Source of the DNA: a virus
Length of the DNA stretch: 64,000 nt
Virus record (IMG/VR): IMGVR_UViG_3300032893_000002
Coordinates: 46,668-110,667 of that record
Strand: one strand, 5' to 3'
Shown: piece by piece, positions 15,537 through 54,265 of the stretch
How the letters are laid out: every line of letters begins with the position of its first letter
Numbering within the stretch: the stretch's first letter is position 1
Notes under the pieces: model-generated
What the model was told of the DNA's origin: nothing
Database searches by the model: none
What the model saw: the letters and a program-made list of their open reading frames with translations, nothing else
Made by a program: the position numbers and the translations under genes

Positions 15537-16451
15537 TTGGAGGTCATTTTATTGACTACAACACGACTTTCACATAAACAGCTAATCGAAAAAATTCGTA
15601 AAAACTTAACAAATTTCAATCCTGTACAAAAATGCGATCCCAAAAAAGGTAAAACATATGAGGAGTATTATGGACAGGAAGATGCAAAACTTATACGAGA
15701 GAAGATGCGTGATTCGCATCTTGGGCAAGAGCCAGGTAACAAAGGCAAACCTTCTCCATTTAAAAACAAAACTTATGAAGAAATAGGCAGAGGTCCAAGT
15801 CCGTTACTAGGACGCGAGCGACCACAAGAAGATCGAGATAAAATTAGTAAAGGTCATTTACTAAGATTAGGTAAAGATAAACCTTCGGAAGAGCGTGATG
15901 GACCACTCACCAGCAGATGGCGCGAGCAGGTTAAGAAACGAGATAACTATACATGTCAATGCTGTGGAGTTAAGCAAGAAGAATTGCTAAGAATAGTTGG
16001 AGATATTACATCGTGGCTTCATGCGCATCATATAAAATCTTGGGCAGAATTTCCAGAGCTTAGGTTTGAAGTATCAAATGGAATTACGCTTTGTTGGCCT
16101 TGCCACTTAAACGTCGAAGGCAAACAGATTAGCTGTCCAGAGCCGCCTCTGCAACAAGTCAAAGTCAAAAACATCAAGACTAGAGGTAAAACGCTAGAAG
16201 AAGTTTATGGATTAGAACGTGCCGCAGAGATAAAGCAACGGCTAAGGCAAAGTCATTTAGGTAAGCCAACAGGGAGAAAAGGCGTTAAGCGTCCTGGAAT
16301 AGGCGGCCGCAAAAAAGGAAGTATTCCACATAATAAAGGGAAGACGAATATCGAAATTTATGGAGTTGAAAAGGCTAAACAGCTAAGTTTAATTGCTGCA
16401 GAGAATGCGCGAGTAAATAGGAATAGATTAGGTACAGGCATTTTTCAATGA
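15537..16451 (+). CDS. Free-standing HNH homing endonuclease (likely starts at TTG 15552)
   Basis: HNH motif CQCCGVK...HAHHIKSWAEF...NGITLCWPCH. Repeated basic K/R-G modules. Confidence 0.7.
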   Translation: MEVILLTTTRLSHKQLIEKIRKNLTNFNPVQKCDPKKGKTYEEYYGQEDAKLIREKMRDSHLGQEPGNKGKPSPFKNKTYEEIGRGPSPLLGRERPQEDRDKISKGHLLRLGKDKPSEERDGPLTSRWREQVKKRDNYTCQCCGVKQEELLRIVGDITSWLHAHHIKSWAEFPELRFEVSNGITLCWPCHLNVEGKQISCPEPPLQQVKVKNIKTRGKTLEEVYGLERAAEIKQRLRQSHLGKPTGRKGVKRPGIGGRKKGSIPHNKGKTNIEIYGVEKAKQLSLIAAENARVNRNRLGTGIFQ

Positions 16452-46493: not shown

Positions 46494-46600
46494 TGGCGCC
46501 CCTGGAGGGATTCGAACCCCCGACCAATGAGTTAATACCCACTGCTCTTTTGAGGGCGGATTTAGAGTCCGCAGCTCTGACCAGACTGAGCTACAGGGGC
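46494..46600 (-). tRNA. tRNA gene with anticodon CUA (amber-suppressor-like), class II-like with unusually long variable region, genomically encoded CCA
   Basis: Reverse complement reads GCCCCTG-TA-GCTC-AGTCTGGTCA-GAGC-T-GCGGA-CUCUAAA-TCCGC-(34 nt)-GGGGG-TTCGAAT-CCCTC-CAGGGGC-G-CCA. Acceptor, D, anticodon and T arms are well formed. The variable region holds an 8-bp hairpin. Coordinates +/-1. Confidence 0.6.
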
Positions 46601-49155: not shown

Positions 49156-51798
49156 TCATGCTTCTTCTTTCAACTCACTTATAGTATTCGATATATTACC
49201 AGACATCATTGTGCTTGAAAGTGCAAACTGTCCAATCGAGTACGCCTGTGCCAATAACACTAAGAATCGATCTCTTGTATTTCTAGATTTTTGAACATAA
49301 AGTCTAGCTAAGCCTAATCGTTGTTCTTCTGGAGTTTGGCTATAAGTTACTACAATATCAGCCGTTCCTATCTTACTCCAATCTTCTGCAACGTTTGTGG
49401 ATGTTACTAACTTGGCAGATTCAGATTCTCTATTACCTTGCGTAGCCGTTACGACTGCCATATTCCGTGCTACAGCTAATCCGCGTAAATCTCTATATAA
49501 TCTTCCAGTATCAATTCTAAGCGAATCAGCATTAAGATACATCAGATCTGCATAATCCAAAACTAAGCAATCAGGAACAAAGTTCTGTTCTTGTTTCAAC
49601 TGTTCTAAATATAAGGTAAGTTGCGGTACGGTAAGAGCTCCAGTAGGGAATTCCTTAATTAATAGCCTTGGATAGCTCTTCATGTCCAGCAATCGTTTAT
49701 GGAGCTCCCTACGCTTAGCAGGGATCGAATTTCGTTGTATATTACGAAACTGGATACTTACTTGTCCATTGACGTCTGTTTCAAAATAGGCTGTATTAAC
49801 TTCTGCTGCTTCGTCTCTTGTTAAACTAAACAAAGATTGAATATATCTCTGTGCAGTCATCTTCTCATCATTCTCAAGCGTGATATGCAGCACGGAATGA
49901 TGATGCATTAGTGAATGCTTACCTACATTTACAAGAAACCAACTATTATGCGTGATGATATTGCCTGCAATAAAGTTGTGATTATCTTTAACTGAGAGAT
50001 CATATGTTTCTATATCTCCGACATACTCGATAGTCTTTACTGAATCAAAAAAGGCATTATCAGATATCTTTATGCAGCCTTTTGGAAACGCAATTTTTGC
50101 AGTATAAGAACATTCGGGCTGACTATATGTTATTAGTTTTTGTTGGGGTTTATATGAAATCAATTTCCCATTTTTATTATAATAGTGTACTTCTGCGTTT
50201 TTTCTAGCGTAACAAACTTTGTCTCTTTTTGGAGATATAACGAGCTTTTGAATTCCGAAACGATCTACAACTATATTAGCTCTTCGAACTTTTTCGGGAA
50301 CAATAAAGCCAATTTTTTTAATGAACTTTAGAACATTTAGTTTGCCCGTAATCACTACATAAGCATATCCTGGAAGTTGTTTTCCTTTCCATTCTGCTGT
50401 AAATGTGTCGAATTTAGCGATAATGCCTAAACGCATAAGAAGATAATTAATATCTTCTACGAGACGTTTACTTGAAAGACTTAATTCTATTACTGGGCAA
50501 TGTGTTTCATGTGCATATATCGACCCATCACAAGAAAAGAATACTTTTAAAAATTCTGCAATCAGTTCATCATTTAGATTGAAAATAAATTCAGGTATGC
50601 ATTTTACATTGGATTTCTTTCCTGCAAGACCTGTTAAGCGAAGCAATTCTTTTACTTTACTATTATGCTTGCCTTTATTTTCCTCATTGCATACAATATA
50701 GCAAAATCCTTCTTCCCAAGATTTATTATCTTTTCCGAAAGAACAACGATCCCCCAGAAATTCCACGCAATGCTGAAAGTCTTTTTGAATTGTTGGATCA
50801 ATATTTGTAAATGTCGGAGTATTTTGTGTTAAGCCTCCCTCGGCAATTAGATACGCAAGTAGACGTACAACTTCTGGTTCTACTTTATTCTTTCCTAAAT
50901 CACTTAATTTAAGTGGAACAGCTATTTTATCTTTTGTAATATCAATATCTTTTATAGCTTTCCATCCAGTTTCAGTTAAAAATGGGTGGTCTTCTGAAAC
51001 CGATATTTCACGCCCTAAGCGTGTAGTAATTTTATAGCATTTCTTTTTACCATTTTTCCACCATCCATTCACATCTGCTACAACGAACTTTTTTTGTTCT
51101 TCCGAGAACGATATAATAGATGTGATCTTTTGTTCTACGGCCTTTTTAATTGTTATCCTTGAACCATCCGGAAGAACTACAAGTTCATTTTCAGCAATGC
51201 ACTTCCCGCGCCCTGCCGCGCCCAAGAAGAGGTACAATGTTTTACGCGATGGACGCACGCCTCTTACGTCTAAAAGATCTACTCCTGATGAAAAGAATTC
51301 TTCCTGTTCTTCCAAATCAAGAAAGCTTAGAGCTTGTTGTGGATCTTTTAGCCATATTCCTGTTGATCCTTCAGGTCCAAGACCTCTATTTTTGAATGCT
51401 GTTTCTTGAGCTTTTTCAAGCTCGCCTTGCCCAAGCAATTCTAAAGCATCTCGTAGTTGCGTCGTCAGTTGTTGAGAAGCTACGAATCGCTCTAACTGTT
51501 CTAAAACGAATGCAGCATCTACTTGTCCTGCCTGTTTCCTGAGAAAATCATATTGCTGCGCTAATAGGGCACCTTGCTGTCCCCGACGCATATCTGCTTC
51601 GAGGAGATATTCAAGTGCTCCCTTTGGTGCATTTCCGAATTTTTTGATGTGGTCTAGAGCTGCTACAGCTATCTGTCTATTTGTAGGATTAGTAAAAATA
51701 TCACTGCTAGGAATTTTAACAGCTAGCGACGCAGCTCTCTCGTCATCCCAACAGAGGAGACTTAGTACTGCCTCCTCTAAGGCTGCTTGCGAGATCAT
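49156..51798 (-). CDS. DnaB-like replicative helicase interrupted by an intein
   Basis: DnaB-like N-terminal domain. Walker A GAAGRGK|S is split by a 419-aa insert that begins with Cys and ends with HN. Walker B LVLDYADLM downstream. Confidence 0.65.
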   Translation of the reverse strand: MISQAALEEAVLSLLCWDDERAASLAVKIPSSDIFTNPTNRQIAVAALDHIKKFGNAPKGALEYLLEADMRRGQQGALLAQQYDFLRKQAGQVDAAFVLEQLERFVASQQLTTQLRDALELLGQGELEKAQETAFKNRGLGPEGSTGIWLKDPQQALSFLDLEEQEEFFSSGVDLLDVRGVRPSRKTLYLFLGAAGRGKCIAENELVVLPDGSRITIKKAVEQKITSIISFSEEQKKFVVADVNGWWKNGKKKCYKITTRLGREISVSEDHPFLTETGWKAIKDIDITKDKIAVPLKLSDLGKNKVEPEVVRLLAYLIAEGGLTQNTPTFTNIDPTIQKDFQHCVEFLGDRCSFGKDNKSWEEGFCYIVCNEENKGKHNSKVKELLRLTGLAGKKSNVKCIPEFIFNLNDELIAEFLKVFFSCDGSIYAHETHCPVIELSLSSKRLVEDINYLLMRLGIIAKFDTFTAEWKGKQLPGYAYVVITGKLNVLKFIKKIGFIVPEKVRRANIVVDRFGIQKLVISPKRDKVCYARKNAEVHYYNKNGKLISYKPQQKLITYSQPECSYTAKIAFPKGCIKISDNAFFDSVKTIEYVGDIETYDLSVKDNHNFIAGNIITHNSWFLVNVGKHSLMHHHSVLHITLENDEKMTAQRYIQSLFSLTRDEAAEVNTAYFETDVNGQVSIQFRNIQRNSIPAKRRELHKRLLDMKSYPRLLIKEFPTGALTVPQLTLYLEQLKQEQNFVPDCLVLDYADLMYLNADSLRIDTGRLYRDLRGLAVARNMAVVTATQGNRESESAKLVTSTNVAEDWSKIGTADIVVTYSQTPEEQRLGLARLYVQKSRNTRDRFLVLLAQAYSIGQFALSSTMMSGNISNTISELKEEA
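49945..51201 (-). mobile_element. Intein with LAGLIDADG homing endonuclease, inserted in helicase P-loop
   Basis: Begins CIAENELVVLPDGS and ends IITHN followed by S. Internal LLAYLIAEGGL (LAGLIDADG motif). Confidence 0.6.
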
Positions 51799-51817: not shown

Positions 51818-52060
51818 CTACTTTTCGTTTGCTTCTTTACATTTCTTAATAATGTCCCTTACTCGTTGATCGTTTGAATCAACGCCGAGAGGAAGTTCTC
51901 CCGTTGCTACGATGCGAGAGAATGCATCTTTATAATTTCCATCGGAATAAGATTCAACAAATTCGTCTGTTATAGATTTCATAGGCATATGAAGCAATCC
52001 TGGTGTAGGTCGTTTTGGTAGGATATTTTGTTTTTGTCTGCCTTTAGGTTTTTTCGTCAT
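51818..52060 (-). CDS. Small basic hypothetical protein
   Basis: ORF only. Confidence 0.3.
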   Translation of the reverse strand: MTKKPKGRQKQNILPKRPTPGLLHMPMKSITDEFVESYSDGNYKDAFSRIVATGELPLGVDSNDQRVRDIIKKCKEANEK

Positions 52061-53668
52061 CTACACAGCTCTCTTATTTCCAAATTCGAGAATATGCAAA
52101 CGTGGACTGAAGTTGTATCCAAATTTTTCAGCTAGTTCTTTAACTTGATTTTGTCTTAGTTCTTGTTCTTCTTTTGTTCGTCCTTCTGGCATCAACCAAA
52201 CTTGCTTTGGAGAAATATTACAAATAAGTATGATAGCTTTCATTTCTTCGATATCAGCTTCTGATTGAATAACGAATTTAAATGTTGCTTTTTCTCCTAA
52301 AGCAGCAATGCCTTCTAGGATATGTGGTTTCAGCCTATCTTTTAGAGGATTGTCAGGACCTGAATTGGAAGTTTTTGGCGAGCAGTTAAATTGATTTACT
52401 GCATCCGAAAATTCTTTAATTGGTAAGACAGTTCCGTTTGTTTCTACTTCAACCCACCAATCCTCTTGAGTTTTTAGTGTTTTAAATAGTTCTAGCAATT
52501 TCACTTGCTGAAGCATTGGTTCGCCACCAGAGACGACTAAACTTCTAACGTCGCCAGCAAGGGCATAAATCGTATCTCGAACCTTCCAAATTTCCATTTT
52601 ATGAACTTCTAATGCAGGGTCATACTTCTCAGGGTGCTTGAAGTTAGTTCCTATCCACGACCATGTAAACGGTGTGTCGCAGTTATGTGCTAGCAGTGTA
52701 TTAGCGAAATAGCTATGGAAGTCTTCTACTTCTAGGTTGTAGACTTTGATTTTTTTACTATCTCCATTAAATCGCGCTGCTTGTCTAACGCTGATTGGAG
52801 TAACTGAAACAACTTTCTTGCCATTATGCAATGCGTATCTTTTTTGTAAAAAGTATTTTTCTATTCTAATAAACCGTTTTTCCTCTTCAAGATGGCAGCG
52901 TTTGCACAACGTAATCAGCAAATGATATTCATGGCTTTGACAAATTCTAAATGGAATTATATGATGCACTTCTAATTTTGAAGTTGCGCCACATTTTTGA
53001 CATGTATGATTATCGCGCTCTAAAATATCTTCTCGTATGCGATCCCAGTTAGTTAAATAAGTCGGATAATACTCCGCGCGGTCTCCAAGGTATCTTGGAT
53101 TTTTAGGCCCAAGCTTTGAGGCACGTAAGCGCACTCTTGTTTCCCACGAAGCTCTTTTCCCTGTAAAAGTTTTCTTTGCTAGTTCAGATAATCGTTGTCT
53201 AGCCGCTGGTCTATAGGAGGGATTAGCATTTTTCATATACCAAGCGATTGTATCAATATAATTAATTTCATCGCCTGCAAGAAGATTTTCCGCGTTTATC
53301 CATCCCCTATTTGTATAAAATTCATGATTTTTTGTAACAAAAACTCTGCTGCTTTCTGTTTCACCTTCAACTTGAACTTTAACAATTTCTTCTCTTGTAA
53401 CTTCCCTTTCAAATACTTTAGTTACTTTCTTTGGAAGGATTTCTTTGCCATCAGAACTTAAAACTAAATCTCCAACTTTGATATCTTTAATCTTCCGATA
53501 TCCTGTAGGCGTATAGATATGAGTATTTCCAACAAAACACCAGATACAGGCAAGATTGCACCCAGATAAGCGAAGAAATACAACCTTTTTTGTTGCTGTT
53601 TTTCCTTCACCTTGATAGGACGAATATATTTCGTTGACTGCAAGAGTTGATAACATATTTAGGCACAT
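52061..53668 (-). CDS. queE: 7-carboxy-7-deazaguanine synthase QueE (radical SAM) interrupted by an intein
   Basis: Exteins give VNEIYSSYQGEG...RLSGCNLACIW|CDTPFTWSW (CxxxCxxC, QueE-like). A 286-aa insert carries an HNH motif. Confidence 0.65.
   Translation of the reverse strand: MCLNMLSTLAVNEIYSSYQGEGKTATKKVVFLRLSGCNLACIWCFVGNTHIYTPTGYRKIKDIKVGDLVLSSDGKEILPKKVTKVFEREVTREEIVKVQVEGETESSRVFVTKNHEFYTNRGWINAENLLAGDEINYIDTIAWYMKNANPSYRPAARQRLSELAKKTFTGKRASWETRVRLRASKLGPKNPRYLGDRAEYYPTYLTNWDRIREDILERDNHTCQKCGATSKLEVHHIIPFRICQSHEYHLLITLCKRCHLEEEKRFIRIEKYFLQKRYALHNGKKVVSVTPISVRQAARFNGDSKKIKVYNLEVEDFHSYFANTLLAHNCDTPFTWSWIGTNFKHPEKYDPALEVHKMEIWKVRDTIYALAGDVRSLVVSGGEPMLQQVKLLELFKTLKTQEDWWVEVETNGTVLPIKEFSDAVNQFNCSPKTSNSGPDNPLKDRLKPHILEGIAALGEKATFKFVIQSEADIEEMKAIILICNISPKQVWLMPEGRTKEEQELRQNQVKELAEKFGYNFSPRLHILEFGNKRAV
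52682..53539 (-). mobile_element. Intein with HNH endonuclease, inserted before the third Cys of the QueE Fe-S motif
   Basis: Begins CFVGNTHIYTP and ends LLAHN followed by C. HNH motif CQKCGATSKLEVHHIIP...CKRCH. Confidence 0.6.
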
Positions 53669-53776
53669 TTCCTTTTAGAATCCATATTACATCATCGTAC
53701 TTGAAACCTTCTGGCATGCGCGCGCCGTCAGGGATTTGTTTGTTAATAGTACCGTTAGTAACCCAATGCCATTCTG

Positions 53777-54265
53777 TCATTTCGAATATGTTGCGCTACA
53801 TTTTGCTGTTTCGTGTACTGTGACGCCTGATAAGACTACGCCACTTCCTTTAAATACTTCTGGGCCAATAGTATCCACTAAGTATTGCGCTATGTTTTCT
53901 GCTGTTGGATTAAAAGGCACTATAACTACCCGCGGATCAATTTGCGTTAGTTGTTTTTGCCACGGATCTTGATCCCAAATTAGCATTCTATGATCCCACT
54001 CAGCGTCGAGCCAGGAACACATTCGACGTTTTATTTCTGAAAAATCAATTATCATTCCAATTTCATCTAATTCATCTGCGTGACAGAATAGTTCAAATTT
54101 ATATTCGTGCCCATGTAACGATTGACATGGCCCGGGCTTGCCCAAATTATCATGCTGGCCTACGACTCTATGTCCAGCACATATTGAATGTTCTCGAGTT
54201 ACTATTCCTGTAAAAGGCATTATAATGAAATATACTATTACTTTATTAATTCGTTGCTGCAACAT
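53777..54265 (-). CDS. queD: 6-carboxy-5,6,7,8-tetrahydropterin synthase QueD
   Basis: C..HGH signature CQSLHGHEYKFEL and ICAGHRVVGQ; size 162 aa. Confidence 0.65.
   Translation of the reverse strand: MLQQRINKVIVYFIIMPFTGIVTREHSICAGHRVVGQHDNLGKPGPCQSLHGHEYKFELFCHADELDEIGMIIDFSEIKRRMCSWLDAEWDHRMLIWDQDPWQKQLTQIDPRVVIVPFNPTAENIAQYLVDTIGPEVFKGSGVVLSGVTVHETAKCSATYSK

Follow-up and report, generated by a model that had tools for sequence, protein, structure and literature searches.

What kind of protein is encoded by a phage gene whose iron–sulphur (Fe–S) cluster motif is broken open by a large insert, and what would such a gene serve? The question is raised by a reading frame in IMGVR_UViG_3300032893_000002, an IMG/VR virus record of which a stretch of 64,000 nt (hereafter the window) was analysed. 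An original prediction, made by inspection of the sequence, had read this frame as encoding QueE, a radical S-adenosylmethionine (SAM) enzyme of the 7-deazaguanine pathway, split within its CxxxCxxC motif by an intein that carries an HNH endonuclease. We can state with good confidence, as regards identity and architecture, that the host protein is QueE and that it is interrupted by an intein of class-1 type. The coordinates of the features discussed are collected in Table 1.

The QueE precursor and its intein

The segments on either side of the insert were joined in silico, giving a protein of 249 residues in which the sequence GCNLACIW/CDTPFTW is restored (a slash marks the splice junction here and below). 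In the precursor, the two junctions read ...LSGCNLACIW43/C44FVGNTHIY... and ...YFANTLLAHN329/C330DTPFTWSW.... The QueE-like character claimed earlier for the exteins is upheld by database searches: the top five NCBIfam matches of the joined exteins are five QueE models, and TIGR03365 is covered over positions 2–238 of 238. In the unspliced precursor, the QueE models match at residues 10–45 and 330–535 (NCBIfam), phrog_2076, a QueE-like radical-SAM domain, matches in two stretches with an E value of 1.8e-48 (PHROGs), and the C-terminal part matches Radical_SAM/Fer4_12 (Pfam). The PDB sequence matches of the joined exteins are to QueE only (5tgs, 6nhl and 4njg); the alignment with 5tgs, the Bacillus subtilis enzyme, passes unbroken through GCxxxCxWCDxxFTW, and B. 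subtilis QueE is also the best radical-SAM fold match of an AlphaFold2 (AF2) model of the precursor (Foldseek). The phage gene thus very probably encodes a 7-carboxy-7-deazaguanine synthase, a radical-SAM enzyme with the predicted catalytic activity of that family. The motifs GCxxxCxWCD(T/S)xxTW and SGGEP and the C-terminal PRLH are shared with B. subtilis QueE (5tgs/5th5), with PHROG 2076 and with QueE of the mycobacteriophage Rosebush type; those proteins differ in having no insertion, and QueE from cultured phages is only ~30% identical to the window exteins. Judged by its sequence, the window QueE belongs to a divergent phage clade.

The insertion is precise. Homologues of the spliced sequence number 2659 at E values below 1e-10, and the best 120 are, one fragment aside, 231–267 residues long and therefore intein-free. 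Alignment of the joined exteins with intein-free homologues that are 49–76% identical to them is gapless across the junction. In a nine-sequence alignment, C37, N38, L39, C41, W43, C44, D45, T46 and P47 (spliced numbering) are invariant, and there is again no gap at the junction. All of the closest intein-free relatives of the window QueE, with identities reaching 76%, come from metagenomes. The intein-free allele is preserved as DNA in the locus L087, which has the same flanks and the same queD–queE order as the window; its empty site, ...TGTATTTGG/TGTGACACT..., in a stretch that is also written ...CTTGCTTGTATTTGG/TGTGACACTCCTTATACTTGG..., is a candidate target for the intein nuclease. Translation of the precursor perhaps starts at Met5, at position 53656, because its homologues open with MLAVNEIY.

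The QueE sequence is also present in three other, short assemblies of the same phage, one of which (L003, from ENA) shows 9 nt differences from the window in a comparison of 2359 nt, with the frame kept. All nine differences fall within 52 nt of the C-extein (52376..52427, queE codons 414–431), the intein and queD being identical in the two; this patch may be a recombination or co-conversion tract.

Annotation of the insert located all four of the splicing blocks A, B, F and G. They are C44 (block A), T112-K-N-H115 (block B), V309-YNLEVEDFH318 (block F) and H328-N329 (block G), the last followed by C330 at position +1, so that the intein does end in HN as had been proposed, with block G intact. 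The intein_Nterm and intein_Cterm models match residues 44–119 and 308–330, respectively (NCBIfam), TIGR01445 and TIGR01443 match the precursor above their cutoffs, and the Pfam Hint and intein families found in it are PT-HINT (E value 6e-15), Intein_splicing and Hint_2. For comparison we assembled 44 intein-bearing QueE-like proteins, some of them only ~27% identical to the window precursor. Within this set, T112 and H115 are invariant, as are the cluster cysteines C37 and C41, and C44, H328, N329, C330, D331 and T332 are each conserved in at least 90%. Conservation of the splicing residues down to ~27% identity argues for selection for splicing.

The expected folds are also seen. PDB sequence matches of the intein are 2lwy and gp41-1. 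The AF2 model of the precursor, built on ten homologues and having a mean predicted local distance difference test score (pLDDT) of 75, matches the mini-inteins gp41-1, Ssp DnaB, Npu DnaB and Mtu RecA with template-modelling scores, TM(target), of 0.72–0.84 and E values down to 4e-8 (Foldseek). In this model the insert has a Hint fold, with a zinc-finger HNH domain inserted in it.

The original prediction had the intein begin at the Cys that would be the third Fe–S ligand. This holds for the precursor, where Cys1 of the intein (C44) fills that position, but not for the mature enzyme; C44 occupies the position in the precursor only, and the third ligand after splicing is C330. The insertion point thus falls between W43 and the third cluster Cys and not at that Cys. 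The splicing residues are all present, and splicing itself is predicted. It would begin with attack of Cys44 on the carbonyl of W43, followed by transfer of the chain to Cys330 and cyclisation of Asn329; an S-to-N shift would then join the exteins, yielding a QueE of 249 residues and a free intein of 286 residues. The ligated QueE would regain C37-x3-C41-x2-C330 and could bind a [4Fe–4S] cluster.

As to the age of the insertion, GC content (0.359 in the intein vs 0.379 in the exteins) gives no sign of a recent foreign origin. Among the five closest homologues the intein is 65–70% and the exteins 59–62% identical to those of the window, and this gap is too small to provide an argument for recent horizontal homing.

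The nuclease domain and the distribution of the intein

The HNH endonuclease that had been recognised in the intein is confirmed at the level of family assignment by a PF01844 match of 26.7 bits, vs a cutoff of 21.4 (Pfam); an IscB HNH region model spans residues 190–269 (NCBIfam). The motif residues are C223xxC226, H235-H236 and C255xxC258-H259, and a NUMOD-like segment, LGPKNPRYLG, lies ahead of the HNH core. From these features the intein is predicted to act as a homing endonuclease, although its competence as a nuclease is uncertain in view of the substitution in the motif described below. The domain would cut the intein-less queE of co-infecting relatives at the conserved site encoding CNLACIWCDTPYTW, and repair of the cut allele would copy the intein in.

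Two free-standing HNH genes, situated beside or near an intact queE, resemble the intein nuclease. Gp72 of Haloarcula virus HCTV-16 (L001, 6483..7097) is 38% identical to the nuclease region over 87 residues (E value 2e-12), and a gene of the IMG/VR locus L016 (11532..12104) is 29% identical to it over 125 residues (E value 1e-8). Both are like the intein nuclease in their NUMOD-like and HNH region and lie in the same gene neighbourhood, but they are separate genes outside any Hint domain and the adjoining queE is uninterrupted. A 2.1-kb match in L016, taken at first sight for an intein-bearing queE, is in reality an intact queE followed by the free-standing HNH gene. In the usual model, a mini-intein captures a free-standing homing endonuclease. 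The two genes fit this model and are candidates for the form from which the composite element arose.

How widespread is the interruption? A full-length search found ~20 intein-bearing QueE proteins, and searching exhaustively with just the intein as query reveals many more; the intein-alone matches in QueE-like proteins all show QGEG...CxxxCxx/C ahead of the Hint domain. The earlier statement that QueE is not known as an intein host holds for the literature, where full-text searches that combined intein with QueE, deazaguanine, radical SAM or insertion site turned up no paper linking an intein to QueE or to another 7-deazaguanine enzyme, but it does not hold for sequence data, in which, by pattern count, at least 40 distinct metagenomic QueE-like clusters carry an intein, so far unannotated, in the cluster motif.

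Three insertion points are used within ~10 residues of the cluster loop. The commonest, W/C...HN/CDT, lies before the third Cys and is that of the window. At the second, two residues downstream, CD/S...HN/TPYTW, inteins with Ser1 and Thr+1 and a LAGLIDADG nuclease are found (P0009–P0012); the third, GCNLR/C...HN/CSWCD, lies before the second Cys (P0214). The nucleases in the 44 proteins include HNH in 11 (PF01844) and HNH_3 in a further 4, with LAGLIDADG_3 in 6, and others of the proteins match no nuclease family. Some of the intein-bearing QueE-like proteins have mini-sized inteins, such as the 165-residue intein of P0008. With its three insertion points, its several types of nuclease (HNH and LAGLIDADG among them), its inteins of mini size and the separate HNH genes beside an intact queE, phage QueE offers a compact system for the evolution of inteins and homing endonucleases.

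The intein allele is nevertheless a small minority among QueE homologues, thousands of which have no intein. It is present in one of the 80 best IMG/VR loci (L030), which made up our survey of viral neighbourhoods, and in none of the 80 best GTDB loci, the cellular survey. Searches of cultured phages, including a tblastn search whose query joined the N-extein to the first half of the intein, found no intein in QueE and no DNA nearly identical to the window region. The tblastn matches obtained in cultured phages are inteins in other hosts (portal, helicase, ribonucleotide reductase and terminase), and a match in a Ruminococcus phage, which seemed to run across the junction, belongs not to QueE but to a PT-HINT toxin-like protein.

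P0209, P0210, P0217 and P0254 are among the nearest full-length relatives of the intein outside QueE-like proteins, in the context PPLHP(N or R)/C...HN/C(R or V)C. A similar intein-bearing match, P0024, carries a Phage_Mu_F domain, and by analogy the four host proteins may function in phage head morphogenesis.

It is well established that inteins occur at catalytic or cofactor-binding residues, that they can carry HNH nucleases and that phages have them, and the element described here is an ordinary mobile element that leaves the understanding of inteins, or of the pathway itself, unchanged. One NCBIfam model provides a further parallel. NF038136, which describes an intein-containing radical-SAM protein of the Rv2578c family, matches the precursor at residues 35–338, nine residues beyond the intein on each side. 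At 41 bits, vs a cutoff of 700, the precursor is not a member, and the exteins of that model belong to another radical-SAM family; the match suggests that an intein occupies the same cluster-binding loop there.

The proposed 7-deazaguanine pathway and alternative readings

The gene context fits QueE. As the original prediction had noted, queD adjoins queE; its product matches PTPS (E value 1e-28, Pfam), TIGR03367 (NCBIfam) and phrog_2389 (E value 2e-44, PHROGs). Together, QueD and QueE would convert 7,8-dihydroneopterin triphosphate (H2NTP) via 6-carboxytetrahydropterin (CPH4) to 7-carboxy-7-deazaguanine (CDG). The two genes belong to a replication and repair module on the minus strand, together with a DnaB-like helicase, an SbcC-like protein, an AAA ATPase and a GIY-YIG/HNH endonuclease. 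The order SbcC...QueD...DnaB is common to the window and to L002, a 125-kb contig that is the closest large relative and that encodes P0004, which is 61% identical. L002 encodes QueC, FolE, a DpdA-like transglycosylase (phrog_887, E value 1e-34), PolA, RecA, SbcC, QueD, DnaB and intein-bearing forms of QueE and QueF. Of the 80 IMG/VR relatives, 57 have folE at a distance of no more than 10 kb from queE, ~18 have queC and 10 have dpdA.

The QueF gene of L002 (11726..13234, (+)) carries an HNH intein of its own before the catalytic Cys (EFTSL/CLAGDT...EIVVHN/CPVTGQPD), so that two consecutive enzymes of the 7-deazaguanine pathway are intein hosts in this contig. To our knowledge, QueF has not been reported to host an intein. 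Intein-split QueE and QueF are absent from the described 7-deazaguanine systems, and QueE, like QueF in L002, is apparently undescribed as a host; it would add a second, phage-borne case of an intein in the Fe–S motif of a radical-SAM enzyme. Because the split proteins score below the family cutoffs, surveys of the pathway in viromes will miss them.

Some observations weigh against the interpretation of the locus as a spliced QueE with a homing intein, acting in a 7-deazaguanine pathway. The joined exteins score 84.9 bits vs the NCBIfam QueE equivalog cutoff of 260.1 bits, that is, below it. Scores far under equivalog cutoffs are usual for phage QueE; as a consequence, the assignment rests on rank, fold and context and not on formal membership. 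At position 311, in block F, the intein has Asn and not the Asp of many other inteins, the Asn being kept across the group. In the nuclease, the central Asn of the H-N-H is replaced by Leu250 in the window copy and by Ile in P0003 and P0004; five other homologues retain it. The Leu means that the intein nuclease may be weakened or decaying. Moreover, queC, folE, dpdA and queF were not found in the window by BLAST and phmmer --max in six frames, with phage and halovirus queries, nor by Pfam on the ten minus-strand ORFs (open reading frames) between 47046 and 63908; for DpdA, QueC and FolE this agrees with what had been reported from inspection. By analogy with L002, the missing genes are probably encoded in the remaining ~116 kb of the 180,030-bp source contig, beyond the window.

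Phage systems for 7-deazaguanine modification of DNA comprise FolE, QueD, QueE and QueC together with DpdA, of which the window has only QueD and QueE. FolE, perhaps QueC, and a DpdA-type transglycosylase, presumed to be encoded outside the window, would complete the route to a 7-deazaguanine base, which would most probably modify the phage's own DNA. The alternative is that the pathway serves RNA, through supply of queuosine or preQ0 to host transfer RNA (tRNA), or yields a free deazapurine metabolite, and does not hypermodify the genome. The window, in which DpdA was not found, does encode a Thg1-like protein, PTH2 and a tRNA. The sole tRNA found has the anticodon CUA, and not one of the Q-family GUN anticodons, which disfavours this alternative, and in L002 a DpdA-like gene stands beside queC and folE; DpdA accompanies queE in 10 of the 80 viral loci. 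Characterised phage queCDE clusters reportedly accompany DNA modification (Hutinet and co-workers, 2019). We regard a destination in RNA or in a free metabolite as unlikely; the DpdA-like transglycosylase of L002 favours a DNA target, and by analogy deazaguanine is more likely made for modification of phage DNA than for tRNA.

Could the intein control the enzyme that it interrupts? Maturation might be gated by redox state or by the cluster, a C41–C44 disulphide, or metal or Fe–S bound at C37-x3-C41-x2-C44, trapping Cys1. Radical-SAM enzymes such as QueE are in general oxygen-labile, and C37 and C41 are invariant, with C44 nearly so, in the intein-bearing set. A precedent is found in MoaA of Pyrococcus abyssi, whose intein was reportedly described by Callahan and co-workers in 2011 and which we take to be inserted at the same site, before the third Cys. 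According to two reports (PMC3922620, PMC10663303), that intein likewise lies in a radical-SAM enzyme and has a native Cys at -3 and a catalytic Cys1, the same geometry as in the window QueE, and redox control of its splicing via a Cys-3/Cys1 trap has been shown; inteins in radical-SAM hosts are thus already established, in this instance in MoaA and not QueE, and in a hyperthermophilic archaeon and not a phage. In QueE, on the other hand, Cys residues at -3 and -7 are imposed by the host motif, and their presence is therefore uninformative on regulation. Moreover, the Ser1/Thr+1 inteins at the neighbouring site (P0009–P0012) lie in the same loop and have no catalytic Cys; insertion in the cluster loop thus needs no trap.

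We consider redox- or cluster-gated maturation quite unlikely, and equally so its corollary that the intein is a conditional switch, and no mere parasite, that leaves QueE active only in reducing or Fe–S-replete conditions. Two extensions are more doubtful still: that the QueF intein at the catalytic Cys in L002 would place the following pathway enzyme under redox control as well, and that the cluster loop of phage QueE is a hot spot for inteins, the intein additionally acting there as a conditional switch, so that 7-deazaguanine modification of the phage DNA would depend on a reducing, Fe–S-replete host cell. For redox-controlled splicing, MoaA of P. abyssi is the standard example, and phage QueE provides a natural second system in which its generality can be addressed.

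It is very improbable that the insert is a decayed, non-splicing one and queE a pseudogene, even though Leu stands in place of Asn in the HNH motif and no pathway genes besides queD and queE were found in the window. No stop codon breaks the frame over 1605 nt, the splicing residues are intact and conserved across homologues that are 27–70% identical, and the gene recurs in three other assemblies, the 9 nt differences in one of these leaving the frame intact; loss of nuclease activity would, in any case, leave splicing unimpaired. That the host is another radical-SAM enzyme, such as an activase of NrdG or PflA type, is scarcely credible: scores under the QueE equivalog cutoffs and the presence of weaker activase matches would allow it, but the top five NCBIfam matches, all PDB sequence matches and the best radical-SAM fold match are QueE, the protein has the N-terminal xEIF..QGEG motif that is specific to QueE, queD lies next to the gene and the PHROG QueE-like family matches at 1.8e-48.

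Other features of the window

Table 1. Positions of the QueE precursor, its parts and other features in the window
Feature	Position	Strand	Basis or remarks
QueE precursor ORF	52061..53668	(-)	535 codons, uninterrupted, TAG stop; QueE, Hint and HNH domain matches
N-extein, aa 1-43	53540..53668	(-)	NEIY..QGEG motif; cluster cysteines C37 and C41 (GCNLACIW)
Intein, aa 44-329, 286 aa	52682..53539	(-)	Hint/intein family matches; splicing blocks A, B, F, G
HNH core within intein, aa 223-264	52877..53002	(-)	PF01844, IscB HNH region, alignment of homologues
C-extein, aa 330-535, 206 aa	52064..52681	(-)	begins at C330 in CDTPFTW; has SGGEP and ETNGT
QueD, 6-carboxytetrahydropterin synthase, PTPS fold	53777..54265	(-)	directly upstream of queE; CxxxHGH as CQSLHGH
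57-aa ORF between queD and queE	53607..53780	(-)	overlaps queE start by ~50-60 nt; no family match
80-aa ORF	51818..52063	(-)	no family match; ATG directly after queE TAG, in frame
DnaB-like helicase	49156..51798	(-)	two genes downstream of queE
Helicase intein, 419 aa	49945..51201		LAGLIDADG; Walker A loop, GAAGRGK/C...ITHN/SWF
tRNA, 104 nt	46497..46600	(-)	Rfam RF00005, 59 bits; missed by ARAGORN
Homing-endonuclease-like gene	58724..59458	(-)	phrog_314, E 9e-37; weak GIY-YIG and HNH signals
PTH2-type peptidyl-tRNA hydrolase	61783..62274	(-)	E 5e-13
Thg1-like tRNA-His guanylyltransferase family protein	62852..63643	(-)	E 2e-24
Homing-endonuclease-like gene	15537..16451	(+)	HNH similarity with HCTV-16 gp72

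The small ORF between queD and queE is also called as a gene in L003 and L004. No preQ1 riboswitch or other Rfam element was found near queD and queE, and promoter and terminator scans gave results at the level of shuffled sequence.

The tRNA has the anticodon CUA of an amber suppressor, a variable arm of unusual length (~31 nt), folded into a 9-bp hairpin, and an encoded CCA. Despite this tRNA, 11 of the 62 window ORFs of at least 80 aa, queE included, end in TAG. Amber suppression at the queE TAG would fuse QueE with the 80-aa ORF downstream; the TAG is nevertheless the normal end of queE, since QueE homologues all finish at ...KRAV. The presence of PTH2 and Thg1-like tRNA functions in the same module is unusual for a phage.

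The genome is rich in selfish elements. In addition to the homing-endonuclease-like genes listed, the DnaB-like helicase contains a second intein, which the L002 homologue does not have; its GC content is ~0.32–0.33, vs ~0.40–0.43 in the helicase exteins.

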